DNA of 64,000 nucleotides from a candidate division WOR-3 bacterium (GTDB taxonomy: Bacteria; Hydrothermota; Tepidihabitantia; B3-TA06). The notes under the pieces are model-generated. The model was not told the DNA's origin. It did no database searches and saw only the letters and a program-made list of their open reading frames with translations. The stretch lies in assembly GCA_965649265.1 (NCBI GenBank), contig CBFGKC010000008.1, positions 1 to 64,000 on the forward strand, written 5' to 3'. Both the position numbers and the translations under genes were made by a program. This document shows positions 47,383 through 63,161 of the stretch, piece after piece (the first letter of the stretch is position 1; every line of letters starts with the position of its first letter).

Positions 47383-48012
47383 TTATGGATCCGATTCGAT
47401 TTCTTTAATTACTGTTTTTACGCTCTTTTTTGCGTTCGTAGTTTCTTCCAAAGCTTTAGTGAGTAACATATCCGTAGTCGTGGTGGACCTTATGAAACAC
47501 TCTGAAGCCTGAGATTCGTTTTCTGTTGCTTCGTGACCTTCTGAAGCATTTTCAATTGTTGCATTTGTTTCGGCATCTTCCCTTACTTGCTTTTGAATGG
47601 AGGAATATTCAGAATTTACCGCTTCTAATGCATCATAAGCATAGTGTAAGTTTTTAATAAGTTCAGTATGGAAGCCTGAGACTGTGGGAAGTACATCAAC
47701 TAGTTTTGGAAATATGTCTACTTTTGTAAAGATTGGTACTCCACTTCTAGTTATAATGTCAACCATTGCATGGTTGTTAATAGCATTTTCTAGCAAGGTG
47801 ATATTATGGTCGAGTTCATACTCCACAGTACGGAGGTAGTAGAGTAGTTTTTTCAAGTCATCTCTGCGTTTAATTTTTCTTCGATGGCTTTCTATTAGTA
47901 ATTGGGTCATATAACCAACGGCCCCGGCTACAAGACCACCGAGAACTACTCCCCAGAATTTTTCCCAATCAACCGAATATAAAAATTGGACAACTGAACT
48001 CCAAAAGTTCAT
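47383..48012 (-). CDS. hypothetical membrane-anchored helical protein, AT-rich
   Basis: 209-aa ORF with N-terminal TM; 4-nt overlap with upstream gene. Confidence 0.65.
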   Translation of the reverse strand: MNFWSSVVQFLYSVDWEKFWGVVLGGLVAGAVGYMTQLLIESHRRKIKRRDDLKKLLYYLRTVEYELDHNITLLENAINNHAMVDIITRSGVPIFTKVDIFPKLVDVLPTVSGFHTELIKNLHYAYDALEAVNSEYSSIQKQVREDAETNATIENASEGHEATENESQASECFIRSTTTTDMLLTKALEETTNAKKSVKTVIKEIESDP

Positions 48013-48650
48013 TCCTGCTCCTTATTCCACGTTGCTTCCCAGCGGCAGCACCCGTCGCCCTTGTGAACGCACAGCGTCTCCTTCACCGCAAGGTTCTTAA
48101 GGTTCTGGTTCTTCCCGGCAGTGAAAAGCCAGGCCTCGAACTGCGGGCACAGCAGAGGATCGACCGCAGGGAAATCGTGAAGCTCTAGCGCAACCATGCC
48201 CACCTCGCCCTCCTCGCCCTCCTTGCCCTCCTCCTCGCCTCCCTCGCCTTCTATAGCCTTTTCAAATACCTGCATGGTGCCTGGTCGATAGAACTTTTTC
48301 CACAGCGATGCGGCTTGCTTCAAAATCAAGTGTAAGGGGAGGTGCTTCATTATCCCGCGCAGGAAGGTGGACTGTTCGAATGTAGAAGTGTAGAGCCCGA
48401 GTTCGAACGCAGCTTTTCTTGCGTCCTGCGGGTTGAACCTGGCCGCTACCCTGGCTCTGAGGTCACGGATTATTTCCACAGGATACCACTCTGCCCTGTT
48501 AGCCTCCTGAACGATCCGTGAATGCTCCACGGGCAGATGCGACAAAAAAGTCACGTACCCCTCCTCATCCAGATGTTCCCTGACGTACTCTCTCACCGCA
48601 ATTATCGCAATGCCGCGAACGAGTACGGCCGGTTCAATACGCTCCTCCAT
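48009..48650 (-). CDS. stand-alone V4R-like protein (DUF2378/TIGR02265-like), paralog 3
   Basis: VRGI...REYV, EWYP, W..FY..G, ETLCVHKGDGCCRW. Confidence 0.7.
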   Translation of the reverse strand: MEERIEPAVLVRGIAIIAVREYVREHLDEEGYVTFLSHLPVEHSRIVQEANRAEWYPVEIIRDLRARVAARFNPQDARKAAFELGLYTSTFEQSTFLRGIMKHLPLHLILKQAASLWKKFYRPGTMQVFEKAIEGEGGEEEGKEGEEGEVGMVALELHDFPAVDPLLCPQFEAWLFTAGKNQNLKNLAVKETLCVHKGDGCCRWEATWNKEQE

Positions 48651-48688
48651 ATGAAAAGATTATATTCAACATTTTTTATGGGGCAAGT

Positions 48689-49291
48689 CTATTCGTGAAA
48701 CCCGGGAGGGGGGCTCTTCCAGGTAACGGCCCAGGTGCAGCATTCATCGCCCGTGTGTATGCAGCTTTCCTTTTTCGTAGCGACATCCCTGAAGCCTGCT
48801 GTCGAGAAAACCCTTTTAAACCACGCCTCGAGCAGCGGGCAGAAAAGCGGGTCCGAGTGGAAATCGTTCAAATGGATCAAAACGCCGTTACTCTTGCGAA
48901 CGGCATTGAGGGTGCCCTGGTTATAATATTTCTTCCAGATCAGATTGACGTTGCCGAGAATGAGATGAAGTGGTACGTTTCCCAGCATTCCTTTCAGGAA
49001 CGTCGATATCTCGTAACTGGCCGCAAAGAGTCCTGCTTCGAAAATAGCTTTTTCGGGGTAGTGGGGGTTAAAGTGGTTTGCGATTGCCTTGCGCAGCTTG
49101 CGCTGCAAGAAAAAAGGATACCAGGAACTCCTTTTTGCGTTCATGATCGTATCGAAGTCTGCCGGAAACATGTGGGTCATGAAGTGCCCGAACTCCATCG
49201 GGTCGAGATTTGCGCATACGTATTCCCTCAGGGATATGATCGAAATGCCTCGCACCTTGAGCGGCGAGTTGTGAGAGCCCTCCATGAGCAT
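48689..49291 (-). CDS. stand-alone V4R-like protein, paralog 2
   Basis: VRGISIISLREYV, SWYP, WKKYY..G, ESCIHTGDECCTW. Confidence 0.7.
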   Translation of the reverse strand: MLMEGSHNSPLKVRGISIISLREYVCANLDPMEFGHFMTHMFPADFDTIMNAKRSSWYPFFLQRKLRKAIANHFNPHYPEKAIFEAGLFAASYEISTFLKGMLGNVPLHLILGNVNLIWKKYYNQGTLNAVRKSNGVLIHLNDFHSDPLFCPLLEAWFKRVFSTAGFRDVATKKESCIHTGDECCTWAVTWKSPPPGFHE

Positions 49292-49330
49292 ACTGCATTA
49301 TAATAGAAAAAAACCCCGGTATTGTCAAGT

Positions 49331-49906
49331 CTACTTCCAGTCAACGTTCCATCTCCAGCATTCGTCGCCTTTGTGGATGTTTGCCGTTTCCCTTACCCGC
49401 GCATCCTTGAGTTCCAGCATCTTTGCAGCCACAGTGAGCCACGCGGTCACGACAGGGCCGAAAAGCCTGTCTGCCGGAAAATCCACGAGTTCGAGTACCG
49501 CCTTTTTGTCGTCCGCAACAGTGCGCATGACCCCCCGGCTGTAATACTTGTCCCATACCGTCGCCGTTTGTTTGAAAACGAGCTTGGCGGGCAGGAAGTT
49601 CATTATCGCGCGCAAAAAGGTGGACATCTCGTACTCCGCGGTGTAAAGGCAGGCCTCGAATACCGCCTCTTCAGGGTCCCCGGGATTGAATTTCTGGACT
49701 ATAAGTTCCCTCATTTTTTTCTGCAAGTCGAATGGATACCACTCCGCCTTGTCTACGTTAAGGACGGCGTGTTTGTCCTCATCGGTCAGGGGCGAAAGGA
49801 AAGCCTTGAGGGACCCGCCCTCCAGTTTGGTCCGCACATACTCACGAAGCGCAAACAGCGAGACGCCTCGAACGAGCATTTCCGATTCATTACCACTTCC
49901 AGACAT
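49331..49906 (-). CDS. stand-alone V4R-like protein, paralog 1
   Basis: VRGVSLFALREYV, EWYP, WDKYY..G, ETANIHKGDECWRW. Confidence 0.7.
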   Translation of the reverse strand: MSGSGNESEMLVRGVSLFALREYVRTKLEGGSLKAFLSPLTDEDKHAVLNVDKAEWYPFDLQKKMRELIVQKFNPGDPEEAVFEACLYTAEYEMSTFLRAIMNFLPAKLVFKQTATVWDKYYSRGVMRTVADDKKAVLELVDFPADRLFGPVVTAWLTVAAKMLELKDARVRETANIHKGDECWRWNVDWK

Positions 49907-50038
49907 ATACCGCTGGTAGTATCTCTAATCCAGGCCGTTTGTCAAGAAAAAAAACCGTCGAAGGGTGGGGGTGTTATTGCGGCCGTGGGAATTTTCTTTT
50001 GCTCTCCACCCAATCCGGGTCTTGCCCGTCGAAACAAG

Positions 50039-50061
50039 GAGGCCGGCTGCTAACCGGCCTC
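50039..50061 (-). terminator. hairpin downstream of kbl
   Basis: GAGGCCGG/CCGGCCTC stem. Confidence 0.5.
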
Positions 50062-50115
50062 TAAAATATTCATAATCCTGCTAGCCTTTTTCGTTTTACG
50101 AAAAAGGGAGCATTT

Positions 50116-51363
50116 TTATTGTCCGTACTTCTCTATGATTTCCTTCTTCTTTAAGCCGAGTATGCCGTACTTCTCGCCTATTTTCTTGAACGCGGCGATG
50201 GCCTTATCGAGATGCTCCTTCTCGTGCGCGGCCGAGAGCTGGGTGCGTATGCGCGCCTGGCCCTGCGGCACCACTGGATAAAAGAAGCCAATCACGTATA
50301 TGCCTTCGTAGTACAAGTCTCTTGCCATGTCCTGCGAGAGCTTGGCGTTGTAGAGCATAACGGGCACGATGGGCGTCTCTCCCGGCCTTATGTCGAACCC
50401 GGCCTCTTCCATCTTCTCGCGGAAGTAGCGGGTGTTGGCCTCTAGTTTGTCGCGGCGCTCAGTGGTTCCTGAGATAAGATCGATCACCTTGTTTGCAGCC
50501 GAGACGATCACGGGGGGCATGGTGTTGGAAAAGAGATAGGGTCTTGCGCGCTGCTTGCACATCTCGACGATTTCCTTGCGGCCCGATACGCAGCCGCCGG
50601 AAGCGCCGCCGAGAGCCTTGCCCAGGGTCGTCGTGATGATGTCTATCTTTCCCACTACGCCGAAGTGCTCGTGGGTTCCACGGCCGGTCTTGCCTATGAA
50701 GCCGGTGGAGTGCGAGTCATCCACGAGGATCATCGCGTCATACTTCTCGCAAAGCTCGACCATCTTATCGAGCGGCGCAAGATCGCCGTCCATGGAGAAC
50801 ACGCCGTCCGTGACCACGAGTCTGATGCGCTTGTCCTGGTGCATGGCAAGCTTCTCTTCAAGGTGTTCCATGTTCATGTGCTTGAAGGAGTCGTACTGCG
50901 CCTTGCAGAGGCGGATGCCGTCTATGAGCGACGCGTGAACGAGTCTATCGGAAATTATCACGTCTTCTTCGCCCAGCACGGCCTCGAACACGCCCGCGTT
51001 GGCGTCCATGCATGAGGGGAAGAGCACCGTGTCCTCGGTGCCCAGAAACTTCGTTATCTTGTCCTGAAGCTCGCGGTGAATGTCCTGGGTTCCGCAGATG
51101 AAGCGCACCGAACTCATTCCGTAGCCTCTCGAATCGAGGCCCTCGTGCGCGGCCTTGATCACGTCAGGATGCGATGAGAGCCCGAGGTAGTTGTTGGCGC
51201 AGAGGTTGATTACTTCCTTGAGCTCGGCGCCTGTCGGGAACTCGACCTTTATCTCGGCGCCCTGCGGCGAGTGGATGAAGCGCTCTTCCTTGAACAATCC
51301 GTTTTCGCGGATTTCCGAGAGAGTCTTCTGGTAGTAGCCGCGGAGCTTTTCGCTGTATGACAT
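50116..51363 (-). CDS. kbl: glycine C-acetyltransferase (2-amino-3-ketobutyrate CoA ligase)
   Basis: CANNYLGL, SSVRFICGTQDIH, DGVFSMDG, TLGKALGGASGG (PLP Lys), QRARPYLFSN, RIRTQLSAAH. Confidence 0.93.
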   Translation of the reverse strand: MSYSEKLRGYYQKTLSEIRENGLFKEERFIHSPQGAEIKVEFPTGAELKEVINLCANNYLGLSSHPDVIKAAHEGLDSRGYGMSSVRFICGTQDIHRELQDKITKFLGTEDTVLFPSCMDANAGVFEAVLGEEDVIISDRLVHASLIDGIRLCKAQYDSFKHMNMEHLEEKLAMHQDKRIRLVVTDGVFSMDGDLAPLDKMVELCEKYDAMILVDDSHSTGFIGKTGRGTHEHFGVVGKIDIITTTLGKALGGASGGCVSGRKEIVEMCKQRARPYLFSNTMPPVIVSAANKVIDLISGTTERRDKLEANTRYFREKMEEAGFDIRPGETPIVPVMLYNAKLSQDMARDLYYEGIYVIGFFYPVVPQGQARIRTQLSAAHEKEHLDKAIAAFKKIGEKYGILGLKKKEIIEKYGQ

Positions 51364-51627
51364 TTACGCCCCCTTGAAGCGCTTCACGAGCTCTACTATG
51401 CGGTTTACGGTGTCGAACGCGTCGGGCGAAGCGTCCTCATCGGGTATCTTTATCTCGTACTTTTTCTCAAGAAACACCTTGAGCGAAACCATCGAGAACG
51501 AATCCACTATCCCGCCCGAGATGAGGGGCGTGTCGGCTGTAAGCGCCTCGGCCTCGTCTTCGTCGTCGATGTACTCGTTCTTGACGTATTTAAGAACCGT
51601 ATCCTTCAACTGGTTTTCATCAAGCAT
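51364..51627 (-). CDS. acyl/aminoacyl carrier protein (phosphopantetheine-binding)
   Basis: 87 aa, acidic; TPLISGGIVDSFSMV; stop codon abuts the kbl ATG; AAGGAG RBS. Confidence 0.9.
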   Translation of the reverse strand: MLDENQLKDTVLKYVKNEYIDDEDEAEALTADTPLISGGIVDSFSMVSLKVFLEKKYEIKIPDEDASPDAFDTVNRIVELVKRFKGA

Positions 51628-51686
51628 CGCTGCTCCTTGGTTTGGTTTTCAATCTCCACGACCTTCCTCCTCACACGACGAAAAGA

Positions 51687-51714
51687 AGTATATCCGACAA
51701 TCGGTACTATGCAA
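51687..51714 (-). promoter_or_regulatory. putative promoter of carrier protein-kbl unit
   Basis: TTGCAT-N16-TATACT on the minus strand. Confidence 0.5.
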
Positions 51715-51722
51715 CTATACAA

Positions 51723-51758
51723 CCCCAAAAGAACGTGAAGCGTTCTTCTGGGGACCCC
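51723..51758. repeat. 36-nt REP-like hairpin, copy 2
   Basis: CCCCAAAAGAACGT-GAA-GCGTTCTTCTGGGG-ACCCC. Confidence 0.8.
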
Positions 51759-51832
51759 TCATTCCATCGTGATGGGGAGGGGGGAGGGCGGAGGGCTCTT
51801 GACACGGCATAATGCCGTTCTATATTAGACTT

Positions 51833-52252
51833 ATGAATAATCTCACCGTCGAAGCCTATTTCGCTGCATTGCCCGATGACAAGCGGCACGCGCTCGAGGC
51901 GCTCAGGCAGATTATAAAAGAAACCTTAGCTTCCTCGCCCGCCCCGCCGCCGGGGGCCTCGCCCGTCTCCCCGCTGGGAGCCTTCCAGGAGGTCATCAGT
52001 TACCAGATCCCGACGTTCAAGTACCAGGGGTACCTCGTGGCCATTTCCGCCCAGAAAAACCACATGAGCCTGCACACGATGAGCAAGGCGCTCATGGCCG
52101 CCATGAAGGACGACCTCGAGCATCTCGATAAGACCGTCGCGTCCATCCACTTCCCCTACGACAAGCCTCTGCCGAAATCGCTCATCACCAAGATCATCCG
52201 CCATCGCATGAAGGAGAACGAGGAACGGATGAGGAACAAGAAGAAAAGGTAA
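51833..52252 (+). CDS. DUF1801 (YdhG-like) protein
   Basis: TVEAYFAALP..R.ALE.LR, ISYQIPTFKY, IHFPYDKPLP; ATG 51833 follows TTGACA-N16-TATATT. Confidence 0.85.
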   Translation: MNNLTVEAYFAALPDDKRHALEALRQIIKETLASSPAPPPGASPVSPLGAFQEVISYQIPTFKYQGYLVAISAQKNHMSLHTMSKALMAAMKDDLEHLDKTVASIHFPYDKPLPKSLITKIIRHRMKENEERMRNKKKR

Positions 52253-52466
52253 AGATTGATGCGTTCCCTGAAAAGGAGTTTTCCCCGCCCCCTTAAAGAC
52301 TCCTGAGGAGGATACCCCTCACACTAGAGAGGGGAGCCCTTTACCGAGGTCGTTCCTTTCTCCCGCGCTTCCTTGAAGCGCACCCCTTACCCCGGAAGTA
52401 GTTGGTAATCCTGCGCGCCTTTTTGGAGAGGGTTGACATGTTTATGCTAAAAGTTATAGTTAATTA

Positions 52467-53102
52467 ATGGAACCCACTTCCAAAGAAAATAAGAAGGCTC
52501 AAAGGACTCAAATATTTATTCTTGTGGTCAGTATTGCTTCAGTACTGGTTGCTCTTCTCATCGGTTTTGGAATTATACGTCCTATCTATACACCTTCAGA
52601 ATCGGAACCAGATACAATTATGGATTTATCCGTGGGGATTGATAAGTCGCATGACGATACAAAATTGACTTCTATTAAAGAAGCTGCAAAGGATTCTACA
52701 GCACAAACCGAAGAAAACCAAATTCCGAAGGTGGAATACAATCAGATCAGGAAAGGAATGACTCTTACCCTGCGCGGGGTTTCTTTTGATTCTGCCAAAT
52801 CGACAATCAAACCTGAGAGTTATCCTGTTCTTGACGAAGCCGCGAAAATTCTCAAGGATAACCCAACTATTCATGTCGAAATTCAGGGGCATACTGATTA
52901 CATGGGTTCTTACGAATACAACCAGAACCTTTCCAAGGCTCGTGCCACAGCGGTGGTTAACTACTTCATCATGAATCACAATATTGATGCCAATCGCCTA
53001 GTTGCACAAGGGTATGGTGAAACAAGACCTATAGCTGATAATAGGTCAGAGTCAGGACGCGAGCTTAATCGAAGGATTGAATTCGTAGTTATCGGTGAAT
53101 AG
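52467..53102 (+). CDS. membrane-anchored OmpA-domain protein
   Basis: N-terminal TM; FDSAKSTI, IQGHTD, NQNLSKARA, GYGETRP, NRRIEF; AT-rich. Confidence 0.9.
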   Translation: MEPTSKENKKAQRTQIFILVVSIASVLVALLIGFGIIRPIYTPSESEPDTIMDLSVGIDKSHDDTKLTSIKEAAKDSTAQTEENQIPKVEYNQIRKGMTLTLRGVSFDSAKSTIKPESYPVLDEAAKILKDNPTIHVEIQGHTDYMGSYEYNQNLSKARATAVVNYFIMNHNIDANRLVAQGYGETRPIADNRSESGRELNRRIEFVVIGE

Positions 53103-53277
53103 TAAATAGGTATGAGGTAATGACAAATATATCAACTCTCTCTCGCCATTCTGGGCCACTTTTTTTTCAGGTTATTGCTTCATTCCTTGCTCATACCTAA
53201 CCTCGGACCAATCTTGATCCAGTGAAGTTTGTCAACCTAAAAAGAATGTCGGAGAAAAACTTCTAACGACTTGCGAT

Positions 53278-53655
53278 TCAGCTCACCGCCTTCTTTACGA
53301 GCGCGCTTATCTTTGTTTCTTCGACGGTTGTCAAATCCTTCAGTGCGAAGGCGACCGGCCACATGACGCCATCGTCGAGCTTCGCCTTGTCGTTGAATCC
53401 GAACGTCATGTACCTTTCCTTGAATTTCTCCGGGCTGCGGAAGAAGCAGACGATCTTGCCGTCCTTTGCGTACCCGGGCATGCCGTACCAGGTTTTTGCC
53501 TCGAGAGCCGGTGCGCTTGCCTTGATGATTGCATGCAGCCGCTCACCTATTGCGCGATAGGGTTCCGGCATGGCAGCGATTGCCGAGAGCACGTCACTTT
53601 CCCCGCCCGCCTTATTCGCTCTCGCGGACGATTTCCCTGTTTTTTTCTCATCCAT
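53278..53655 (-). CDS. DUF1801 protein (second subfamily)
   Basis: [47 protein letters not shown]. Confidence 0.85.
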
Positions 53656-53932
53656 TTTGCGATCTCCTTTTCTTTATAATTTCCTAGTAATATTGTAGTG
53701 TTACAGTCTGTCTTGTCAAGGAACCGACGTTGAATCTACTATGTCGTTTTGATTCAGGTTGCCCTCAGCCGGGAAAGGTCAAATCCCCCCTACCCCCCTT
53801 AATAAGGGAGGGCCGATCTCTCCGCCTCCTACCCTCTGGCCACGAGCGGGTGCCCCTTCGAGAGGCGTACTCTGTCTGCCAGGGAGGGGGAGGTCTTTTA
53901 CCTCCCAAAAGGTCGGAAATCCCCCCTTTTTT

Positions 53933-54100
53933 ACCCCAAACGTCCGCTGCGCATACGTCCGGGGACCCCGGTTTTGTCCAACTTTTTCCACCCCAAACGT
54001 CCGCTGCGCATACGTCCGGGGACCCCGGTTTTGTCCAACTTTTTCCACCCCAAACGTCTGCTTCGCATACGTCCGGGGACCCCGGTTTTGTCCAACTTTT
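53933..54100. repeat. 57-bp tandem repeat x3, each containing a 36-nt REP-like hairpin (53934, 53991, 54048)
   Basis: ACCCCAAACGTCCGCTGCGCATACGTCCGGGGACCCCGGTTTTGTCCAACTTTTTCC; third unit has two substitutions. Confidence 0.95.
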
Positions 54101-54193
54101 GACCATCTTTTGACCAACTTTTTTTTCCCCGAAAAGTACTCAAAAAGCCCGATTTGTCTATCTTTTGTCCCACTTTTGTCCAGCTTTTTTTTG

Positions 54194-54273
54194 CCCCACA
54201 AGATCGCGTTGCGCTCTTGTGGGGACCCCGAACTCAACCCCACGAATCTACTCCATAGCTTCGCGGGGACCCC
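54194..54273. repeat. two further 36-nt REP-like hairpins (54194-54229, 54238-54273)
   Basis: CCCCACAAGATCGC-GTT-GCGCTCTTGTGGGG-ACCCC and CCCCACGAATCTAC-TCC-ATAGCTTCGCGGGG-ACCCC. Confidence 0.8.
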
Positions 54274-54281
54274 AATTTTCT

Positions 54282-54309
54282 AAAAAAAGAGTGCGCAAAA
54301 TGCGCACTC
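54282..54309 (-). terminator. intrinsic terminator after acsA
   Basis: GAGTGCGCA/TGCGCACTC stem followed by T7 on the minus strand. Confidence 0.75.
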
Positions 54310-54360
54310 ATCAAATCTTGGATTAGATAAAAAACAGATAAACTGTTTCTTGTCTAATAG

Positions 54361-56067
54361 TTATACATCGTCGTTCACGAGCGTGGAGATGTCACCTATA
54401 TCCTCGCCCCATTCCTGGGCGCGAAGAACGCGGCGCATGATTTTTCCCGATCTCGTTTTTGGAAGCGAACTTACAAACTCAATCTCCTGCGGCATCGCGA
54501 GAGGGGAGAGCTTCTTGCGAATGAAGTTCATTATCTCAAGTTCAAGATCTGTCGAGACTTGGAAGCCCGGTTTAAGCGCCACGAATGCCTTGACGACCTC
54601 CATGTTGACGGGATCGGGCTTTCCGACCGCCGCCGATTCCGCGACCGCCGGATGCTCAAGTAACGCAGATTCGATCTCAAACGGCCCAACTAGGTGACCG
54701 GCGGTGTTGATGACATCATCATCCCTGCCGACGAACCAGAAGTAGCCGTCCTTGTCTATGGACGAGCGGTCGCCGCATATATACCAGCCATTCTTGAACT
54801 TATTGTCGTAGGTCTCCTTGTTGTTCCAGTACATTCTGAACATGGAGGGCCAGCCAGGTTTGAGTGCAATGAGTCCGACCTTGCCGGGTTCCTTGATTGG
54901 TTCATAAGTCTTTAAATCCACAACAGTTGCAGTGATGCCCGGAAACGGTTTGCCCATGGAGCCGGCCTTAATCTCCATGCCGGGGAAGTTCGTGATCATG
55001 ATGGCGCCGGTTTCGGTCTGCCAGTACGTGTCGTGGAACGGCAGGCCGTACGCTTCCTTTGACCAGTGTACGGCTTCCGCGTTCAGGGGTTCGCCCACGC
55101 TTGCAAGGTGCCGTAAAGTCGACATGTTATACTTCTTGACGATCTCGGTGCCTTCCTTCATGAGCATTCTTATCGCAGTCGGAGCCGAGTACCAGACCGT
55201 AATCTTGTGATCCTGGATAAGCTTGTACCAGCGGTCCGGGATAAACCCTGCATCCAGAACGATTTGTGTGATTCCCAACGACCAGGGACCTATAACCCCG
55301 TAAGAGGTTCCTGTTACCCAGCCCGGGTCGGCCGTACACCAGTAGATGTCGTCATCCCTGACATCGAGCACCCAACTCGTCGTAACGGCCTGCGCAAATA
55401 TCGAACCGTGAACGTGTTGGGCGCCCTTGGGCTTGCCGGTCGTTCCCGACGTATAGTGAAGCAGGGAGGGGGTCTCAGGGGTGCAGGGGTGGCTCTCGAA
55501 CTTCTCGACCTTTTCTGCCTTTTCAAGTTCGAACACTATCTCGCCTTCGCCCTTTTTGCTGGGCTCGCCGTCAACGACAATTATGTGCTTGAGATTGGGA
55601 AGATCGGGCTTTATCTGACGAACCTTCGAGACATGCTTCTTGGTTGTGATCACGGCCACCGTACCCGCATCCTCCAGACGCGTCATCAAAGATTCGGGTC
55701 CGAACGCGGAGAAGAGCGGCTGCGCCATTGCGCCGAGCTTTAATATCCCCAGAATCGAAAAGTACAAATCGGGAATCTTGTCCATGAATACGCAGACGCG
55801 GTCGCCGACCTTAATTCCCAAATCCTTGAGATACTGGGCATAGGTATTTGTCACAAGTCTCAAATCATTGAAGGTATAGCGCTTGACCGTGCCGTCCGAA
55901 CCTTCCCAGATAAGGGCAAGTTTATCCTTCTTGCCCCGCTCGCATATTCTGTCCGAACAGTAATAACCGATATTTAAAAAATCACCTTCCTTGTAGCCCA
56001 GGAGTTCGCGCGCCTGAGTCCAGTCGAAGTCCTTGTAGCGATCCTCATAAGAGCCTATGTTACTCAT
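54361..56067 (-). CDS. acsA: acetate-CoA ligase (Bacillus AcsA-type adenylate-forming enzyme)
   Basis: YTSGTTGKPKG, WCTADPGWVTG, SVGEPLN, DTYWQTETG, GRDDD, PKTRSGKIMRR. Confidence 0.9.
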   Translation of the reverse strand: MSNIGSYEDRYKDFDWTQARELLGYKEGDFLNIGYYCSDRICERGKKDKLALIWEGSDGTVKRYTFNDLRLVTNTYAQYLKDLGIKVGDRVCVFMDKIPDLYFSILGILKLGAMAQPLFSAFGPESLMTRLEDAGTVAVITTKKHVSKVRQIKPDLPNLKHIIVVDGEPSKKGEGEIVFELEKAEKVEKFESHPCTPETPSLLHYTSGTTGKPKGAQHVHGSIFAQAVTTSWVLDVRDDDIYWCTADPGWVTGTSYGVIGPWSLGITQIVLDAGFIPDRWYKLIQDHKITVWYSAPTAIRMLMKEGTEIVKKYNMSTLRHLASVGEPLNAEAVHWSKEAYGLPFHDTYWQTETGAIMITNFPGMEIKAGSMGKPFPGITATVVDLKTYEPIKEPGKVGLIALKPGWPSMFRMYWNNKETYDNKFKNGWYICGDRSSIDKDGYFWFVGRDDDVINTAGHLVGPFEIESALLEHPAVAESAAVGKPDPVNMEVVKAFVALKPGFQVSTDLELEIMNFIRKKLSPLAMPQEIEFVSSLPKTRSGKIMRRVLRAQEWGEDIGDISTLVNDDV

Positions 56068-56132
56068 ATCTCTCCTTAAATTTGAAAGCGATGAAGAAAG
56101 CCTGCATCGCCGATTTTACACATCCTGAACAA

Positions 56133-57254
56133 TTATTTTTTCTCACCGAGACGTTTCCTTGCAGCAGCCAGTTCGTCTTTATCCGGGAAAAGTACGACCT
56201 TTGCCGCAAGGCGCGGAACCGCAAGAAGCATCTCGAAGCCTTTCTCGAATTCATCAAGCGCCATAACGTGAGTTACTATAGGCGATATATCCAGCCGCTT
56301 TCCTGTCAGCAGATTACGCATCCTGTACCACGTATCGAATAACTTTCTGCCGTTGATGCCGTTAATTTGAGCGCCCTTGAAAACGATTCCGTTGTTATAA
56401 TCGATAGGCACCTTTGCTTCAGACGCGACGCCGAAAGCGGTCAGGCGTCCGCCTTTTCTTAAATGGGTGAAGGCTTCCTCTATAGGTTTTTCTCCGCCGA
56501 CCATCTCGACCGAGACATCCACTCCGAAGCCGTCCGTCGCATCCAGAACAAACTTGTGACGCTCCTCAAGACTCGTCTTCTTTATATCGAGCGTGTAGTC
56601 AGCACCCATGCGCCTGGCAATGTCCATCGCGAAGTCCGAATATCCCACTACGAATATCTTCGCGACCCCTGCGGCCCGGGCGACGCCGGTTGCAAAAAGG
56701 GCGGTGGGTCCGTCGCCCACTATAACCATCGTCTTGCCGGCAACGTCGGCATCCTCGCCCAGCACGGCATAGACTCCGTTACCCATGGGTTCCTGCACGC
56801 ATGCGAGTTCCGGAGGAATCGCGCGGTCGTTGCGCCAGCAAACGCGTTCCGGTACGGCCACGTACTTGGCGAATACCCCGTCGCGGTCCACGCCCAGTAT
56901 CTGCATATGCTCGCCGATATGCCTCTGGCCGAGCAATGACGTAAGATCGCCCGGATCGTAAATGTGAGTTTCGCAGGATACGTAGTCGTCCTTCTTTATA
57001 CTTCTGACCGCCTGACCGACCTCAACCACCTCTCCGGCAACCTCATGTCCAAGTATCTGGGGAAGTTTTTTTTCTCCCATTCTCCTCTGCGCCCATGGAT
57101 TCCACTCGTATATGTGAACGTCGGTGCCGCAAATCGAAGTTGCCTGAACCCGGACGAGAACCTCGTCCGGGCGAATAGTCGGGGTGTCAACGTCCTTTAA
57201 TTCCGCTCCGCCCTTCTCCGGCCTTATCTTGACTACCGCTTTCATTTTTGACAT
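56133..57254 (-). CDS. tdh: L-threonine 3-dehydrogenase-like zinc MDR enzyme, divergent
   Basis: ICGTDVHIYEW, GHEVAG, EPMGN.V, GINGRKLFDTWY; start ATG 57254 with GGAG RBS. Confidence 0.78.
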   Translation of the reverse strand: MSKMKAVVKIRPEKGGAELKDVDTPTIRPDEVLVRVQATSICGTDVHIYEWNPWAQRRMGEKKLPQILGHEVAGEVVEVGQAVRSIKKDDYVSCETHIYDPGDLTSLLGQRHIGEHMQILGVDRDGVFAKYVAVPERVCWRNDRAIPPELACVQEPMGNGVYAVLGEDADVAGKTMVIVGDGPTALFATGVARAAGVAKIFVVGYSDFAMDIARRMGADYTLDIKKTSLEERHKFVLDATDGFGVDVSVEMVGGEKPIEEAFTHLRKGGRLTAFGVASEAKVPIDYNNGIVFKGAQINGINGRKLFDTWYRMRNLLTGKRLDISPIVTHVMALDEFEKGFEMLLAVPRLAAKVVLFPDKDELAAARKRLGEKK

Positions 57255-57320
57255 TGTTACTCCATTTTGACAAGTATCTTTTATCTTATGTAACAAGGGG
57301 ATTCTGTCAACAGCCCAGCC

Positions 57321-57490
57321 CCCCCTCAGCCTTCCTCAGCTCCCCTCAGTAGCAACCTTCACATAAAAATATCCATGAACCTTCCGGTCGAACGAAGTTC
57401 GACAAGCGACATTCGATGTCGCCGCCCTCCCTCCGCCCTCCTCCGCCCTCCTCCGCCCTCCTCAGGCATCCTCAGGCATCCTCAGGCATC
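57321..57490. repeat. 10-bp-period simple repeats and two short hairpins
   Basis: (NNNCCTCAGY)x3, (CTCCGCCCTC)x3, (CTCAGGCATC)x3; GTCGAAC-GAA-GTTCGAC and GCGACAT-TCG-ATGTCGC. Confidence 0.85.
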
Positions 57491-57721
57491 CTTGGATCAC
57501 ATATTTTGACCTTGCTTTACTGAGATGAACTCATGCGCTTCCGTTACTAATCCACATTTTCTCAAAGGAGTGCTGTTCGTTAAGCCAGGTAAAAATTTGT
57601 TGCAGCATGACGCAGCAGGGTCTTGACAAACCATGTGGACTGGCTATGCTATTTGTGCCGAGCGAATGACTCGGTTCGAGAACAGTGTGAAATTGACTAA
57701 AGAGACCAATAAGGAGGAGTA

Positions 57722-58537
57722 ATGAAAAAACTTCTGGTCTTGCTTCTAGGTGCGGCATTCATAGCGGGATGTGGCCTGATACCTGATGAAGAAGCTATAA
57801 AAAAACTCTTGACAGAAGATCTCAAAGTGGCGGCGGAGCCCACGGACAAGGGCGTGAAGATATATATATCCGGCATGCCGGCTGATCTGCCGAACGGCCT
57901 GGACGGCCTGAGCATATTTGTCACCGGTGATACAAATAATCTGGGAACGGCTGTTGAAACCGGATTGACGAAAGATGATACCGTAGTCACCGGAAACCTG
58001 CTTAATGGTGAAGCAACCTCCGTTGTCGTCCGCGGCGAGGTTGGCGGTCAGGTTACCGCCTACGGCTTTACACGTGGTTTCTATCCCAGACCTGGAGGCT
58101 TCGGCGATTACCTGGGTTTCGATCCGGGTGGTCAAGTGGACAGCGGTGGAGTTTACTTTGATCGTTCAACCGGTGTTCCAACATCGACTTCGGGTTCTTC
58201 CGGCAGTTTAGATTTCGTCTTCTATCGCGACGCTGACAATCTCTATCTGGCTAAAAGACCCGGCATGATACCTGGTGGTGTTGCAGTCGCAACGGAGTCG
58301 ACAGAAGCATGGCTGGATGTCCAGGATGCTCCTGGGGCTACTAGTTATGGAGATTCTGTCAAAATCGAATCCGGCAAGATATACCAGTTTATGACCGGTG
58401 ATGACACGCCTTACTATGGCAAATTTGCAATAGACTCGGTTAAGCTGGTTACAAGTGCGCTTGCCGGTTCGGGCGACGCAATAAAGGTCTGGCTTCGTTA
58501 CGCGTTCCAGACGGCACAAGGTGTTGGACACTATTAA
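57722..58537 (+). CDS. hypothetical lipoprotein
   Basis: MKK + lipobox IAGC; AAGGAGG RBS; TTGACA-N16-TATGCT promoter. Confidence 0.8.
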   Translation: MKKLLVLLLGAAFIAGCGLIPDEEAIKKLLTEDLKVAAEPTDKGVKIYISGMPADLPNGLDGLSIFVTGDTNNLGTAVETGLTKDDTVVTGNLLNGEATSVVVRGEVGGQVTAYGFTRGFYPRPGGFGDYLGFDPGGQVDSGGVYFDRSTGVPTSTSGSSGSLDFVFYRDADNLYLAKRPGMIPGGVAVATESTEAWLDVQDAPGATSYGDSVKIESGKIYQFMTGDDTPYYGKFAIDSVKLVTSALAGSGDAIKVWLRYAFQTAQGVGHY

Positions 58538-58621: not shown

Positions 58622-61600
58622 CTACTTATCTTCTAAGGTGAGGCGATGGCTGTCGATTCCTCGTTCTATAAGATTATTTCTTACCAGTGCGGCATTCTCC
58701 TTGGAGAGTTTTTCAAGGATGACATCTGCTGCTTTTGCGGCCTGGTTTTCATACTTCGTCCACCTGGAGAAGTCGATTGGATGCATGACTCTCGAGGAAA
58801 AGGAAGGGGTCATGGTTCCTTGTTCATTTTTTTTGAACAGCAGGCTTTTTCCTGCAACTCGGGATAGAATGAGATTTGCCGAAAGAGAAAACCAAAGAAG
58901 ATCAGATTCGACTGCGGCTTCAATTACCTTAAGAGCGTAGCTCTGGGCTTCGTCCATTTTACCTTCTCCGTAATAGGCCTCGGAAAGGAGCAAGTAAGTC
59001 GAGAGACATTCCCTTGCGGCCATTTTATCGCCCACATCCTTTTCGACCTGAAGAAGAATCTGGATTGCAGAGGCGAACATCCCATTGGCAAGGTTGATCC
59101 TTACTGCGGTAAGAAGCGAAGTGGTAGACGAAGCCGTATTCTCCAGTTGATTCGATAATCCCTGCAAATCCATAAGATCGACGACTGCAGTCTCCAGATC
59201 CTTGGATTCAATCAGGTTATAGATCCGGGCGGCAATGGCAGACATGAGCAAATCCTGAGTCTCGTATCGCTTTGCAAGCTCTACCGCCTTGCCTGCGGCA
59301 TTCAATCCCTTTTCCAAGAGGCCCATTTCCGCATATGTATTGGCTCGTAGTATCAGGGCTTCTATTTTCAACCTCGTCATTTCAGGTGAGCCGCTTACAT
59401 CTTCAACATAGTCCAATGTCTGAAGCGCCTCTTCATATAGGGCGAAATCCAGCGAGGCTTCTGCATAACGCATCGAGGCTTCAACCTCACCCCAAATGTC
59501 ACCCGAGCTTTTGAAAAGCTCACGGGCTTCCTTTATCTGGGAGAACCCTTCCTTGAATCGTCCCGAATTCCTGTTGGTCGAAGCAAGGGTTGCGAGCGCT
59601 TTCGCCGACCCTTGCGGATTACCTAATTCCGAGAATATCCTGTAGGCTTCCTCAAGGTGCGGCATTGCTTCGTCGAGCTTACCAAGTATCTGCAAAGTGT
59701 TTCCTACGTGGGCATGCGCATCGGCTATCCTCTGAGGTTCACCGACCATTTTGCGGAGCCTCAGGGCACTTTTATAAGATTCAAGAGCCTCCTCCGGTTT
59801 TCCCATGTAGTAAAAAATATGACCTTTGTTTAGATCTACCTCTCCTGAAAGCTCCGGATTCTGTAATTCCTCGGCCCTTATTGTCGCCTCTTCCATTCTT
59901 GAGTAAGCTGTATCCAGGTCCCCTTTCATGAGGTATACACCCGCAAGTTCTATCGTGCACTTAATGATGTTTTCCCTGTGGCCGATTTCTATTGCCGCCT
60001 TGAGAGCTCTTTCAAGATAGCTTTCGGCTTCCTGTGTTTTTCCGAGTTGCAAGAGAAGTCTTGCCAGATTGAGGATATTTGTCGTCAGGAGAAGCTTGTC
60101 ATCCGATTTCTCGGCCAATGCGACGGCCTTCTGATAGTAATCGAGTGATTTGTCCGGCTGTCCGAGAAATCTGTTCAGGGTTGCAAGATTGTTTAAGGCC
60201 CTGTTCGTTTCCTCTATATCGCCAATAACTTGGGCCGCTTCAAGCCCGGTCTGGAAGTCAACTTCTGCTTCTTCATGACGTCCCTGTCTGGCGTAACCTG
60301 CTCCTCTTTCTATATGCGCTACCGCCATCCCTTTTTTGTATCCCAGGGTTTCCGATTTGCGCATTGCTTCCTCGGAGTATTCAAAGAGATGATCGAAATC
60401 GGCAAGGAAGCGCGAAACGTAAGCTAACTTGTTGAGGGTATCAACCTCTCGCTCCTGCATGCCGGTGCGTATGGACAGGTTCCGGGCGGAGGAATATTGC
60501 TTTGCCGCTTCAACAAAACGACCCTGGTATTCATAAACCTGCCCGAGACCGAAGTAGGCGGTGTAGAGATCCTCGCTGTGACCTTCGCCGAAGTGTTCCT
60601 GCCATATATTTACCGATTTTGCAAAGTCTTGTTCTGCCGCTTCATTCCTGAAGAGGCGGCGGTTTTCCTTTGCAGAACGGATGCTGTATGTGAAGGCATT
60701 TTCCCAATCACCCGACTCGGTGAAGTGATGGGCAAGAATCGCCGAGTAACGCTCCAGGGAGGATTTGTAAAGATTCTCAATGGCGCGGGCAACCTGATTG
60801 TGATAACGCTCCCTTTCTCCCCGGAGAATGGAATCGTAGCAAACATCGCGAATAAGGGTCTGGTTGAATACGTAATCCACCTCACCCGCTTCAAGAGTGT
60901 AAACAAGACCTGCAGAGACCGCAGGGTTCAAAAGCTCTCCCAGATTTTCAATTCCAAGGATATTAGAGATTATGGGTGCCGGGAAGTGCATGCCGTATAC
61001 CGCGCCAAGCTTCAACGCTTCACGAACGTTCTCGGAAAGCCTGTCCAGTCTTGAAAACACCAGACTGTACAAATCGTCCGGTATCTCCTTGAAATCGACA
61101 TCCCCCTCCATCTCCCATGTCTCATCTTTTTTGGAAATAAATCCCTTGTCTGTCAGGTAACCGATCCATTGCTCAAGCACGGTAGGGTTCCCAAGGGCTC
61201 TTTCGTAGAGAAACTGGTGTAGTCTGTCGGATGCTTTCGCGCCCAGGAAAAGTTCGGTCAAATCCCTGGATTCCGATGCCGACAGCGGAGAAAGAATTAT
61301 CTCCTTAGCCTTACCCTCGGAGACAAAAACATCTTTGAAAACCTGTTCGTACTCTTTATCGTAGGCGAACAGAAAGAAGATTCCTTTAGGCTTGAGCCTG
61401 GGCAGTGTCCTGGCCGCAAAAGAGAGCATCTCAAACGATCCGGAATCGGTCTTTGAAAGGTCGTCCACTACTAGAGCAAGGTTACCTCCGGCGGACCTCG
61501 CCAAGAGGTAACTTCTGAAAGCGTCCAGCAAGTTCTCAAGCCTTAATTCAGGCGAATACGATGCTATTTTTGCCTGCTCTTCCTCAAGTCCGAAGAGCAT

Positions 61601-63157
61601 TGCGGCAATAAAAGGAAATCTCTTAGTCAGTTCGCGGCCCCTGTCATCACCTGCGTTATCACCCCCTATTGACTCCAAATGCTCCTTCAACTTCAGGCGT
61701 TTTGTTAGAGGATCATCCTCTTCCTTTATCTGGGATGCAAGAACCAGTATCCGGCGAAATACCTGATAAGGTGCTTCCCTTTCTTCTAGTGAGAGTTTTA
61801 TCACTTCGTGGGTTGAGGTCAATTCCTTCGTCGCCCTCTGCAGGAAACGGCTCTTACCGATACCCTGATCGCCAGTGATTCCAGCCGTGAGGCTTTCCTG
61901 AGCGGCTAACTCGAGAACTTTCTTGAGTTCATCAGAGTGGGTAGTCCACTCGGCTTTCAAACCTGAGACCTGGGTTTTGGCTCCGGTTAGTCTGAATCTT
62001 TTGTGTTTGATTCCTCTCACCTCCACCGACAAAAGCTCTTCAGTTTCGTAAATGTCGGCAAATTTCTCACTGGCTTCGTCGGTGATAACGAATTCTCCCG
62101 GTTGCGAAGCGGCCATTATTTTAGCGGCGCTGTTTACCCTCTGTCCTATGACCGTGTACTCCTTTTCGCTTCCGCCTATATAACCTGCGAATACCGCTCC
62201 ATACGAAAGTCCGGCGGTAAGCCTGAACGGTGATTTCATCTCCGAGAGCTCTTTGAAACATCTGGCTGCGTCTGACCTGTCCGTCTCATGACTTAGGGGG
62301 GCCCCGAACAGGATCAGATACTTGTTTCCGCTCGTCGAGATATCGATCTTATTGATGGTCCCTTTATGGCTTTTTACAAGCCTGTAAATGTCCAGATAGA
62401 AGTTGTTAAGGCTTTCGAAATGCGGGTTTTGACAATCGTAGCCGTCAACGTTCAGAAAGCATGAAGCCGCGACCCTGTACTCTCCTCCCCTAGATAACGT
62501 GGTTTTTCCACTTCTTCCGAGAGGAAGAAACGAGCGGGTCTGTTCTGCAAGCCTTACCCTTTCTTCTTCTTTAAACTCCGGATACTCCTCTTCAGGAAAA
62601 ATAATATCGTTAAGCCCTCTTTTAACAACCAGTTCTCCAGGACCTAGAGTTTTTTCCGCATACGCGAGTTCCTCAATAGTAATACCCAAAGGAAACCAGT
62701 CTGTTTTTTCTTCCGAACCGAGTATAGCCTCGTAATACTCCCCTCCACCAAGTATCGCTTTCATGGACAGAGTAAAATCGCCGCGCTTGGTTTTGACAGT
62801 TGGATTTTCCTTGAACCAGTCCAGCATTTCCCACGCTGCCTTTGTCCCTCGGTCGACCGCGTCCTTTCCCGAAAAACTCGCGAGAAGCGAATCGCCTCCC
62901 AGCTTGAGCAGAATCCCCTTGTAGTTAGCTATTATTCTCGAGAGCCTTCCGAAATGGTCGTTAAGGATCGAAGTTACTTCCTCAATACCCTCTTTTCCCT
63001 CCTGGGTTAATGTCTCGGTAAGAGCGGTGAAGCCTGAAATATCCGTGTAGAGTAATACCGACTGTCTTTTTGTGATGCCAGGAATCACAACTCCTTCACT
63101 GCCTATCTTCGCAAGTACATGAAGTGGAATCTGAGGCAGAAGTATCTCGTTGGCCAT
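58622..63157 (-). CDS. class III adenylate/guanylate cyclase (tandem domains) + STAND/AAA NTPase + TPR protein
   Basis: YTDISGFTALTE, KLGGDS; second domain ILFGAP, EYTVIGQRVNSAAK; Walker A GDQGIGKS, Walker B VVDDL, GNP, SRLDRL; long TPR tail; start ATG 63157. Confidence 0.88.
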   Translation of the reverse strand: MANEILLPQIPLHVLAKIGSEGVVIPGITKRQSVLLYTDISGFTALTETLTQEGKEGIEEVTSILNDHFGRLSRIIANYKGILLKLGGDSLLASFSGKDAVDRGTKAAWEMLDWFKENPTVKTKRGDFTLSMKAILGGGEYYEAILGSEEKTDWFPLGITIEELAYAEKTLGPGELVVKRGLNDIIFPEEEYPEFKEEERVRLAEQTRSFLPLGRSGKTTLSRGGEYRVAASCFLNVDGYDCQNPHFESLNNFYLDIYRLVKSHKGTINKIDISTSGNKYLILFGAPLSHETDRSDAARCFKELSEMKSPFRLTAGLSYGAVFAGYIGGSEKEYTVIGQRVNSAAKIMAASQPGEFVITDEASEKFADIYETEELLSVEVRGIKHKRFRLTGAKTQVSGLKAEWTTHSDELKKVLELAAQESLTAGITGDQGIGKSRFLQRATKELTSTHEVIKLSLEEREAPYQVFRRILVLASQIKEEDDPLTKRLKLKEHLESIGGDNAGDDRGRELTKRFPFIAAMLFGLEEEQAKIASYSPELRLENLLDAFRSYLLARSAGGNLALVVDDLSKTDSGSFEMLSFAARTLPRLKPKGIFFLFAYDKEYEQVFKDVFVSEGKAKEIILSPLSASESRDLTELFLGAKASDRLHQFLYERALGNPTVLEQWIGYLTDKGFISKKDETWEMEGDVDFKEIPDDLYSLVFSRLDRLSENVREALKLGAVYGMHFPAPIISNILGIENLGELLNPAVSAGLVYTLEAGEVDYVFNQTLIRDVCYDSILRGERERYHNQVARAIENLYKSSLERYSAILAHHFTESGDWENAFTYSIRSAKENRRLFRNEAAEQDFAKSVNIWQEHFGEGHSEDLYTAYFGLGQVYEYQGRFVEAAKQYSSARNLSIRTGMQEREVDTLNKLAYVSRFLADFDHLFEYSEEAMRKSETLGYKKGMAVAHIERGAGYARQGRHEEAEVDFQTGLEAAQVIGDIEETNRALNNLATLNRFLGQPDKSLDYYQKAVALAEKSDDKLLLTTNILNLARLLLQLGKTQEAESYLERALKAAIEIGHRENIIKCTIELAGVYLMKGDLDTAYSRMEEATIRAEELQNPELSGEVDLNKGHIFYYMGKPEEALESYKSALRLRKMVGEPQRIADAHAHVGNTLQILGKLDEAMPHLEEAYRIFSELGNPQGSAKALATLASTNRNSGRFKEGFSQIKEARELFKSSGDIWGEVEASMRYAEASLDFALYEEALQTLDYVEDVSGSPEMTRLKIEALILRANTYAEMGLLEKGLNAAGKAVELAKRYETQDLLMSAIAARIYNLIESKDLETAVVDLMDLQGLSNQLENTASSTTSLLTAVRINLANGMFASAIQILLQVEKDVGDKMAARECLSTYLLLSEAYYGEGKMDEAQSYALKVIEAAVESDLLWFSLSANLILSRVAGKSLLFKKNEQGTMTPSFSSRVMHPIDFSRWTKYENQAAKAADVILEKLSKENAALVRNNLIERGIDSHRLTLEDK

Positions 63158-63161
63158 GTTA

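Follow-up and report, generated by a model that had tools for sequence, protein, structure and literature searches.

The locus and its conservation in relatives

The window analysed here is a stretch of 64,000 nucleotides from a candidate division WOR-3 bacterium (GenBank assembly GCA_965649265.1, contig CBFGKC010000008.1, positions 1 to 64,000 of the forward strand), which lies on contig C8 of a 2.74-Mb genome in 27 contigs, estimated to be about 96% complete. Between positions 50,116 and 57,254 it contains four genes, encoding a dehydrogenase similar to L-threonine dehydrogenase (tdh-like), an AMP-forming acetate ligase (acs), an acyl carrier protein (ACP; acp) and an alpha-oxoamine synthase of the Kbl type (kbl). 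They correspond to a conserved module with the order [tdh]-[AcpS-type PPTase]-acs-acp-kbl, here present in split form; PPTase denotes a phosphopantetheinyl transferase. The analysis supports the interpretation, first put forward in a sequence-only reading of this DNA, of a putative carrier-dependent module connecting acetate, glycine and threonine; we estimate a probability of roughly 0.7 that the acetyl group travels on the carrier, in whichever direction the module runs.

All four genes lie on the minus strand, in line with the shared orientation described before. The first of them, at 56,133–57,254, encodes a zinc-type medium-chain dehydrogenase/reductase (MDR) with ADH_N and ADH_zinc_N domains; its longest open reading frame (ORF) begins at a TTG at 57,296 (56,133–57,296), and the ATG at 57,254, which corresponds to the start position in relatives, is the likely true start. 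It is followed by acs (54,361–56,067), a match to the short-type acetate ligase model NF003313 and proposed to encode an acetate:carrier-protein ligase. A terminator-like hairpin stands after acs at 54,289–54,309 on the minus strand, a consensus match only, with a 9-pair stem (6 G-C) followed by a T run. The dedicated carrier gene, acp (51,364–51,627, PF00550), is preceded by an AAGGAG box and encodes 87 residues with an invariant GIVDSFSMVSLK motif. Its TAA stop codon is directly followed by the ATG of kbl (50,116–51,363, TIGR01822), in agreement with the abutting codons noted earlier, and a second minus-strand hairpin of the same kind, likewise a consensus match only, is found after kbl at 50,039–50,061 (10-pair stem, 7 G-C). 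The division into two pairs by accessory DNA and a terminator also holds, with 2,733 bp between the acs stop and the acp start. Furthermore, the claim that no fatty acid synthase, polyketide synthase or non-ribosomal peptide synthetase gene lies nearby is borne out by the flanking genes, which are mutS, four small ORFs without a Pfam family, a cyclase-AAA-TPR protein and an S49 peptidase. An Rfam scan of 49,800–57,800 gave no match at E <= 1. Among sequencing runs, none of RNA was listed for this DNA, and eight DNA runs showed small shares of 0.10–0.14.

The conservation of this arrangement is apparent from a wider scan with one genome per species, which gave more than 567 confirmed carrier relatives among the matches listed. 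The best 80 loci, nearly all from metagenome-assembled genomes, were mapped by tblastn, at least two of them being duplicate contigs from the class to which the genome belongs (L029 = L018 and L030 = L017). A kbl gene of more than 60% identity lies directly 3′ of the carrier in 77 of the 80 loci (71 of the 73 with enough downstream DNA), and acs lies directly 5′ of it in 72 (67 of the 74 with enough upstream DNA). Consequently, the gene arrangement is far beyond chance, and the co-occurrence of the carrier with acs and kbl, on which the sequence-only reading depended, is observed. The loci are distributed over at least 16 named phyla, with 22 loci bearing no phylum label. A PPTase is present in 41 of the 80 loci, a second, carrier-less Kbl paralogue (45–62% identical) in 25, tdh in 10, and a gene of the GPR1/FUN34/YaaH acetate-permease family, located 3′ of kbl, in nine (PF01184 confirmed for L093). 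No tailoring or lipid genes are conserved near the module. The carrier family is large: a profile search of a protein collection gave at least 8,000 clusters at E <= 1e-10, in addition to the species-level loci mentioned above.

Within the class, 41 genomes including this one were sampled, and 19 of them have a close carrier homologue (E <= 1e-23, 59–100% identity); the weaker matches are only 33–40% identical and are probably housekeeping ACPs. Fifteen of the 19 carrier loci were mapped, six from the window's own family and nine from three other families. The contiguity that the earlier reading had looked for in other genomes is readily apparent in the latter group: acs-acp-kbl is uninterrupted in all nine loci, and the order tdh, PPTase, acs, acp, kbl is found in seven, with an ORF of 116–119 residues in the PPTase position. 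The AcpS-type domain PF01648 was confirmed for the small ORF of L022, L021 and L068, of which L022 is one of the seven full-order loci; the tdh of L022 (family f9) also passes the TIGR00692 cut-off, at 483.7 bits. Also among the nine, L019 has tdh 4 kb upstream and L021 has a tdh fragment only. A DAO-family flavoprotein gene, closest to soxB and ThiO (glycine-/sarcosine-oxidase-like), lies 3′ of kbl in eight class loci.

In the window's own family, acp abuts kbl in six of six loci, and in three loci of one genus the tdh-like gene and acs lie about 3 kb from acp-kbl. The two pairs lie 2.7 kb apart in the window, about 3 kb apart in genus g3 and 11 kb apart in G002, and they stand on separate contigs in G001 and G004. 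In spite of these splits, the tdh-like gene and acs remain together, as do acp and kbl.

All 19 carrier-bearing genomes have an acs orthologue (at least 69% identity); among the 22 others, one does. The exception, G007, belongs to the window's family and is 93% complete; the tdh-like gene and acs are present, and acp-kbl is absent from the assembly. Among the other 21 carrier-less genomes, 12 have only Acs homologues of 37–46% identity, the best of which lie in ORFs of 633–658 residues (the long type), and nine have none at E <= 1e-80. In the carrier-bearing genomes the module ligase is the sole Acs at E <= 1e-80 with this query. Each of these genomes likewise has exactly one Kbl above the cut-off, located beside the carrier and scoring 587–633 bits, and in the present genome the kbl of the module is the sole Kbl. 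A higher-scoring Kbl (628–672 bits) is found in 18 of the 22 carrier-less genomes, directly beside tdh in five. This distribution of Kbl and tdh indicates that the full module and the plain tdh-kbl pair are alternatives within the class.

The carrier and the module enzymes

The carrier is a marginal match to PF00550 (21.4 bits, cut-off 20.8), and among the NCBIfam models it comes closest to the ornithine-lipid ACP (66 bits, cut-off 130). In an alignment of 27 sequences, 27 columns show no variation, D42 and S43 among them; the median net charge is −9. The AlphaFold model (pLDDT 87.6) is a helical bundle with helices at residues 4–19, 23–28, 43–57 and 74–85, in which Ser43, the predicted attachment serine, stands at the start of the helix 43–57. 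The nearest folds obtained with Foldseek are the stand-alone carriers PigG, PltL and DltC, with TM scores of 0.71–0.84. The housekeeping AcpP of the genome (107.8 bits, contig C20) is distinct from the module carrier. There is no PPTase gene in the window, and the genome contains a single AcpS, on contig C9.

The Kbl-type synthase scores 609.2 bits against the glycine C-acetyltransferase model TIGR01822 (cut-off 493) and 474–476 bits against the solved Kbl chains 1fc4 and 7bxp. Its TLGKALGG and QARIRTQ motifs, which we take to be the pyridoxal phosphate-lysine motif and the substrate-carboxylate arginine motif, respectively, are identical to those of 1fc4 in the alignment, and all 27 sequences compared have K249, R371 and R373. 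Assignments as Spt, BioF, ALAS or CqsA were rejected, all of these models remaining under cut-off (252–331 bits against 500–670 for Spt). In a quick tree search rooted on the two other alpha-oxoamine synthases of this genome, the carrier-adjacent Kbls (80 rows, including the window copy and at least two duplicate contigs) form one clade separate from 24 paralogues, with an SH-aLRT support of 98. The members of this clade have a conserved 13-residue C-terminal tail, which 20 of the 24 paralogues lack; the other four, which do have it, stand in tandem behind a clade member. The adjacent carrier in 77 of the 80 loci, the separate clade and the C-terminal tail argue, from context, for the carrier as the likely thiol partner of Kbl. 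A structure prediction of the Kbl dimer in complex with the carrier, run without controls, gave a score of 0.23 against a mark of 0.32 and speaks neither for nor against this pairing.

The ligase scores 781.4 bits against NF003313 (cut-off 729), and its closest solved chain is 9g79, an acetyl-CoA synthetase (569 bits). Its residues were mapped through alignment to S. enterica Acs (2p2f), in which we take V310, T311, V386 and W414 to form the acetate pocket, with the tryptophan limiting Acs to acetate, and K609 to be the catalytic lysine. Of 69 carrier-linked homologues, all have the corresponding pocket residues V251, T252 and V324, 67 have W349, and 68 have the catalytic lysine, K542. A long-chain acid ligase was also considered and rejected, the long-chain models being under their cut-offs and the acetate pocket being conserved. 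For long-type Acs enzymes, an E-G-x-R-x-x-R loop that binds coenzyme A (CoA) is described in PMC13404658. At this position the module ligase has K144, H145, S147 and R150, and the clade shows a conserved basic stretch, with K144 in 65, H145 in 66, K148 in 68 and R150 in all of the 69 sequences. The replacement of the loop gives no verdict on the acceptor, since 9g79, the closest solved short-type chain, is also without it.

Since both the ligase and Kbl pass the NCBI equivalog cut-offs for CoA enzymes, both may simply use CoA, a point that weighs against carriage of the acetyl group on the protein. The carrier would then serve otherwise, for instance as a regulatory or scaffolding subunit with no acetyl group on it. 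The match of about 475 bits between Kbl and the solved E. coli Kbl chain is consistent with this alternative, as is the position of the module ligase as the only Acs at the threshold above in carrier-bearing genomes, so that it may also have to serve CoA. It accounts poorly, on the other hand, for the near-universal acs-acp-kbl order, for the AcpS-type PPTase in 41 of the 80 loci, for an attachment serine that is invariant together with its surroundings across phyla, and for a Kbl clade and an acs orthologue that both track the carrier; we consider it very unlikely.

The Tdh-like dehydrogenase differs more from its reference family, scoring 347.3 bits against TIGR00692 (tdh), under the cut-off of 458.35; its best solved relatives are archaeal L-threonine dehydrogenases, at about 309 bits. 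Its SICGTD and GHE motifs retain the Cys, His and Glu. The lobe that presumably holds the structural zinc has lost all four Cys and reads HIYDPGDLTSLLGQRHIG. Furthermore, a Gly stands at the end of the Rossmann strand beta-2, in contrast to the Glu or Asp of canonical proteins, an acidic residue that we assume usually specifies NAD. The cofactor site would thus fit a relaxed or NADP(H) preference, which is only a hint, as no basic residue follows closely. A 60%-identical relative of the Tdh-like enzyme is encoded upstream of PPTase and acs in the Zixibacteria locus L070. In the complete genome G027, all that is left of tdh upstream of PPTase-acs-acp-kbl is a C-terminal fragment (L021:12242–12430). 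The rest of this genome gave no MDR-type tdh at E <= 1e-60, and a search beside its module for a short-chain (SDR-type) Tdh in place of the lost gene gave ribF, truB and nrnA as neighbours instead. With only a tdh remnant in G027, the module evidently persists there without its dehydrogenase.

These features of the dehydrogenase bear on the identity of the product. A Tdh-like enzyme under the tdh cut-off, altered in its zinc lobe and cofactor site, and a tdh gene unlinked in 70 of the 80 wider loci would be in line with a module that makes some other small amino-ketone or amino-alcohol, from another short acid or amino acid or through decarboxylation to aminoacetone, as a building block or signal and not threonine. 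Related alpha-oxoamine synthases do yield varied amino-ketones. Against this, the acetate-limiting pocket tryptophan is kept in 67 of 69 homologues, the synthase matches the Kbl model far better (609 bits) than those for Spt, BioF, ALAS and CqsA, and the vicinity holds no conserved tailoring or lipid genes. A product of this kind therefore appears quite unlikely.

Proposed mechanism, direction of flux and related systems

In the mechanism that we propose, a PPTase, in this genome the single housekeeping AcpS, would convert the carrier into its holo form. The Acs-type ligase would adenylate acetate and pass the acetyl group to the phosphopantetheine thiol of the carrier, and the carrier-linked Kbl would condense acetyl-carrier with glycine, giving 2-amino-3-ketobutyrate and free holo-carrier. 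Reduction of 2-amino-3-ketobutyrate by the Tdh-like dehydrogenase would finally yield threonine, so that the assimilatory net reaction would consume acetate, glycine, ATP and NAD(P)H. By a rough estimate, threonine synthesis from an acetyl-thioester, glycine and NADH would be about 9 kJ/mol uphill. A private thioester pool, fully charged by the conversion of ATP to AMP and PPi, could drive this synthesis without touching the acetyl-CoA pool.

A comparable loading of a carrier is known from the AasR-AcpR-Spt trio of Caulobacter and other 'Rhodobacteria', for which PMC9386255 reports experiments showing that a specialised ACP is loaded from the free acid for an alpha-oxoamine synthase. According to the same paper, the specialised ANL-type ligase acylates only its own ACP, and the synthase prefers acyl-ACP over acyl-CoA. 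The two systems also share the adjacency of ligase, ACP and alpha-oxoamine synthase, with the ligase displaced by 2.7 kb in this window. In contrast to the module, the trio takes long-chain fatty acids and serine to 3-oxo-sphinganine for sphingolipids (PMC9386255). The module has an acetate-type Acs, a Kbl and a different carrier family, and its hosts belong to the FCB group, Acidobacteriota and related phyla. It would thus work like AasR-AcpR-Spt, yet it is no member of that system, because the substrate-defining features fail, the Spt and long-chain ligase models both being under cut-off.

The classical Tdh-Kbl pathway from threonine to glycine uses free CoA. As in this pathway (E. coli kbl-tdh), the Kbl of the module is above the equivalog cut-off, and tdh belongs to the same operon in the class relatives. 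In contrast to it, PPTase, ligase and carrier are inserted between tdh and kbl, and the Kbl falls into a clade of its own, which has a C-terminal tail. The ligase, in turn, has the fold, the acetate-pocket residues and the catalytic lysine of AMP-forming acetyl-CoA synthetases (9g79; S. enterica Acs 1pg4/2p2f; SaAcs1), and differs from the long-type enzymes in carrying the basic stretch K144, H145, K148 and R150 in place of the loop that 9g79 also lacks. For SaAcs1 of Syntrophus, PMC13404658 indicates that such Acs enzymes can run towards ATP.

As regards the carrier, the stand-alone fold and the DSF-type attachment motif are shared with PigG/PigI, PltL/PltF and DltC, and, according to the titles of the structure entries, PigG and PltL have been crystallised trapped with their adenylating enzymes PigI and PltF. 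Unlike the module carrier, PigG, PltL and DltC hold amino acids (in prodiginine and pyoluteorin formation and teichoic-acid alanylation, respectively), and none of them is known to feed a Kbl-type synthase. In central metabolism, the ATP-dependent acetylation of a dedicated ACP has a precedent in CitC, the acetate:SH-ACP ligase of citrate lyase. The fold of CitC is a different one, and the ACP that it acetylates belongs to the lyase complex as a subunit and bears a different prosthetic group. Literature searches over the full text of articles gave no description of a carrier-dependent Kbl.

The direction of flux is less clearly indicated than the involvement of the carrier, and we place the assimilatory direction, from acetate and glycine to threonine, slightly below an even chance. 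By analogy, the ligase of AasR-AcpR-Spt, which charges its carrier from the free acid, would favour this direction. So would the lack of an evident gain from a carrier in threonine breakdown, given the AckA and PTA_PTB-family genes of the genome, and the coexistence of a carrier-less Kbl paralogue with the module in 25 of the 80 loci. The Tdh-like enzyme without the acidic residue usual for NAD and the acetate-permease-family gene 3′ of kbl in nine of the 80 loci may point the same way.

The sequence-only reading had suggested a check for threonine genes and a PPTase. AcpS is present. Neither thrC nor thrB above cut-off, and no homoserine dehydrogenase gene (hom), was found in this genome, and the best thrC hit (26.5 bits) is a cysteate synthase; yet ilvC is also missing from all 41 class genomes, and trpB and argH from all 11 genomes of the window's family. 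Because ilvC, trpB and argH are absent as well, the loss of thrB, thrC and hom does not alone argue for biosynthesis, and the six absences together characterise the window's family as a broad auxotroph. Moreover, thrC is above cut-off in eight of the 19 carrier-bearing and in 10 of the 22 other class genomes, which shows no association either way and indicates that the module is not replacing thrC. That the module is an ATP-driven threonine biosynthesis on a private acetyl-carrier, and the sole threonine route in lineages without hom, thrB and thrC, is doubtful.

The cysteate synthase accounts for the only weak 'thrC' match of the genome. It is encoded outside the window, on contig C18 (C18:7976–11602; L108:166–3792), where the synthase gene (TIGR03844, 523 bits, cut-off 325) comes after a YeiH-family transporter gene and 6 bp before a gene for an Spt/BioF-like alpha-oxoamine synthase. 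These genes represent a candidate capnine-type sulfonolipid pathway.

The same carrier module could instead be run catabolically, from threonine to glycine and acetyl-carrier. In this case Tdh would oxidise imported threonine and Kbl would cleave 2-amino-3-ketobutyrate with holo-carrier; the reversed ligase would then form acetate and ATP from acetyl-carrier, AMP and PPi, with release of holo-carrier, and glycine would pass to the glycine cleavage system. Several observations are consistent with such breakdown and weigh against the assimilatory proposal. In this class, the module is found where sister lineages have the classical, catabolic tdh-kbl pair. Broad auxotrophy and the presence of Ptb/Buk-like genes, AckA and gcvT make the window's family a probable amino-acid fermenter, which suits threonine breakdown too; this genome itself has AckA, two PTA_PTB-family genes, one of them beside an AckA/Buk-type kinase, and gcvT. 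The DAO-family flavoprotein gene 3′ of kbl in eight class loci can be read as a sign of glycine consumption, and the carrier-bearing genomes of families f5, f6 and f9 retain thrC. AMP-forming Acs enzymes working towards ATP are reported for Syntrophus (PMC4992975, PMC13404658).

Two further points count against threonine synthesis: tdh accompanies the module in only 10 of the 80 wider loci and survives as a mere remnant in the complete relative G027, and the free-energy argument given above rests on rough values. The catabolic alternative meets objections of its own, in that the carrier adds no obvious gain over CoA, AckA and PTA_PTB-family genes being already at hand in the genome; in that the reverse ligase reaction would be thermodynamically tight, by our estimate; and in that the carrier-less Kbl paralogue beside the module in 25 of the 80 loci would be redundant. 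Taking both sides into account, we regard catabolic operation as somewhat unlikely and slightly less probable than the assimilatory proposal. A search for the glycine reductase family PF07355 gave no match in this genome, and control genomes likewise gave none, which makes this negative uninformative. On contig C2 (189679–191213), the AckA/Buk-type kinase match (82 bits) adjoins the PTA_PTB-family gene, which suggests a phosphotransacylase-kinase pair fermenting branched or short acids.

The present analysis contributes five points: the module can occur in split form and lack a PPTase of its own; in one class, its distribution and that of the plain tdh-kbl pair are either-or; acs and the carrier co-occur strictly; the thrC test is negative; and the Tdh-like enzyme is altered. 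Kbl and Acs are textbook CoA enzymes. If the carrier-based reading is true, insulation on a carrier, otherwise associated with lipids, polyketides and peptides, also serves a two-carbon step of central amino-acid metabolism. A flow towards threonine would represent a new amino-acid biosynthesis route, and a flow towards acetate and ATP a new form of substrate-level energy conservation. Because databases name the carriers of this family only as generic 'acyl carrier protein', the module genes are probably mistaken for plain acetate activation and threonine degradation when the metabolism of many sediment and wastewater phyla is reconstructed.

The insert and flanking features

The accessory DNA between acs and acp contains three genes. 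Two of them encode DUF1801 proteins (PF08818), one at 53,278–53,655 on the minus strand (28.5 bits) and one at 51,812–52,252 on the plus strand (47.9 bits). Between them, an OmpA-like lipoprotein is encoded on the plus strand at 52,467–53,102 (PF00691, 87.6 bits), whose best NCBIfam match, a YiaD-type model, is under cut-off at 126 bits. The non-coding part of the insert carries a 57-bp tandem repeat at 53,926–54,100, with 3.1 copies, 96% matches and a Tandem Repeats Finder score of 322, together with GGGGACCCC palindromes. Both belong to a dense set of small repeats in the acs-acp spacer (53,760–54,290 and 51,750). The GGGGACCCC palindrome occurs in 85 copies in the 2.74-Mb genome, against about 10 expected by our own estimate, and six of the seven copies in the window fall into this spacer; partial copies of the 57-bp unit are present on contigs C1, C7 and C27. 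The spacer repeat looks like a dispersed element of the repetitive extragenic palindromic (REP) kind at a rearrangement hot spot. In the relatives, the internal junctions of the module gather differing accessory genes from genome to genome, and in the window's own family the interval from the tdh-like gene to acs contains a gene for a GmrSD-type restriction endonuclease (L016:3044–4978) or for a DUF559 endonuclease (L017:5111–5554).

An Rfam scan of 17 other loci gave 6S RNA only, in three loci of family f9. The 6S RNA gene (73–80 bits) lies just upstream of the module, near its tdh end (L022:14910–15063, L024:4964–5117 and L026:4938–5092), and adjoins an RNase Y gene, annotated in L022.

Between mutS and kbl, the minus strand of the window carries four tandem ORFs of 191–213 residues without a Pfam family (47,383–49,906). 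By tblastn they match each other as well as similar arrays in the relatives L013 and L014, and a plus-strand ORF that overlaps the array (49,322–50,053) is probably a shadow. On the other side of the module, at 58,622–63,181 on the minus strand, lies the gene of a 1,519-residue protein that combines adenylate/guanylate cyclase and AAA_16 ATPase domains with many TPR repeats, in the manner of a MalT-like signalling ATPase.

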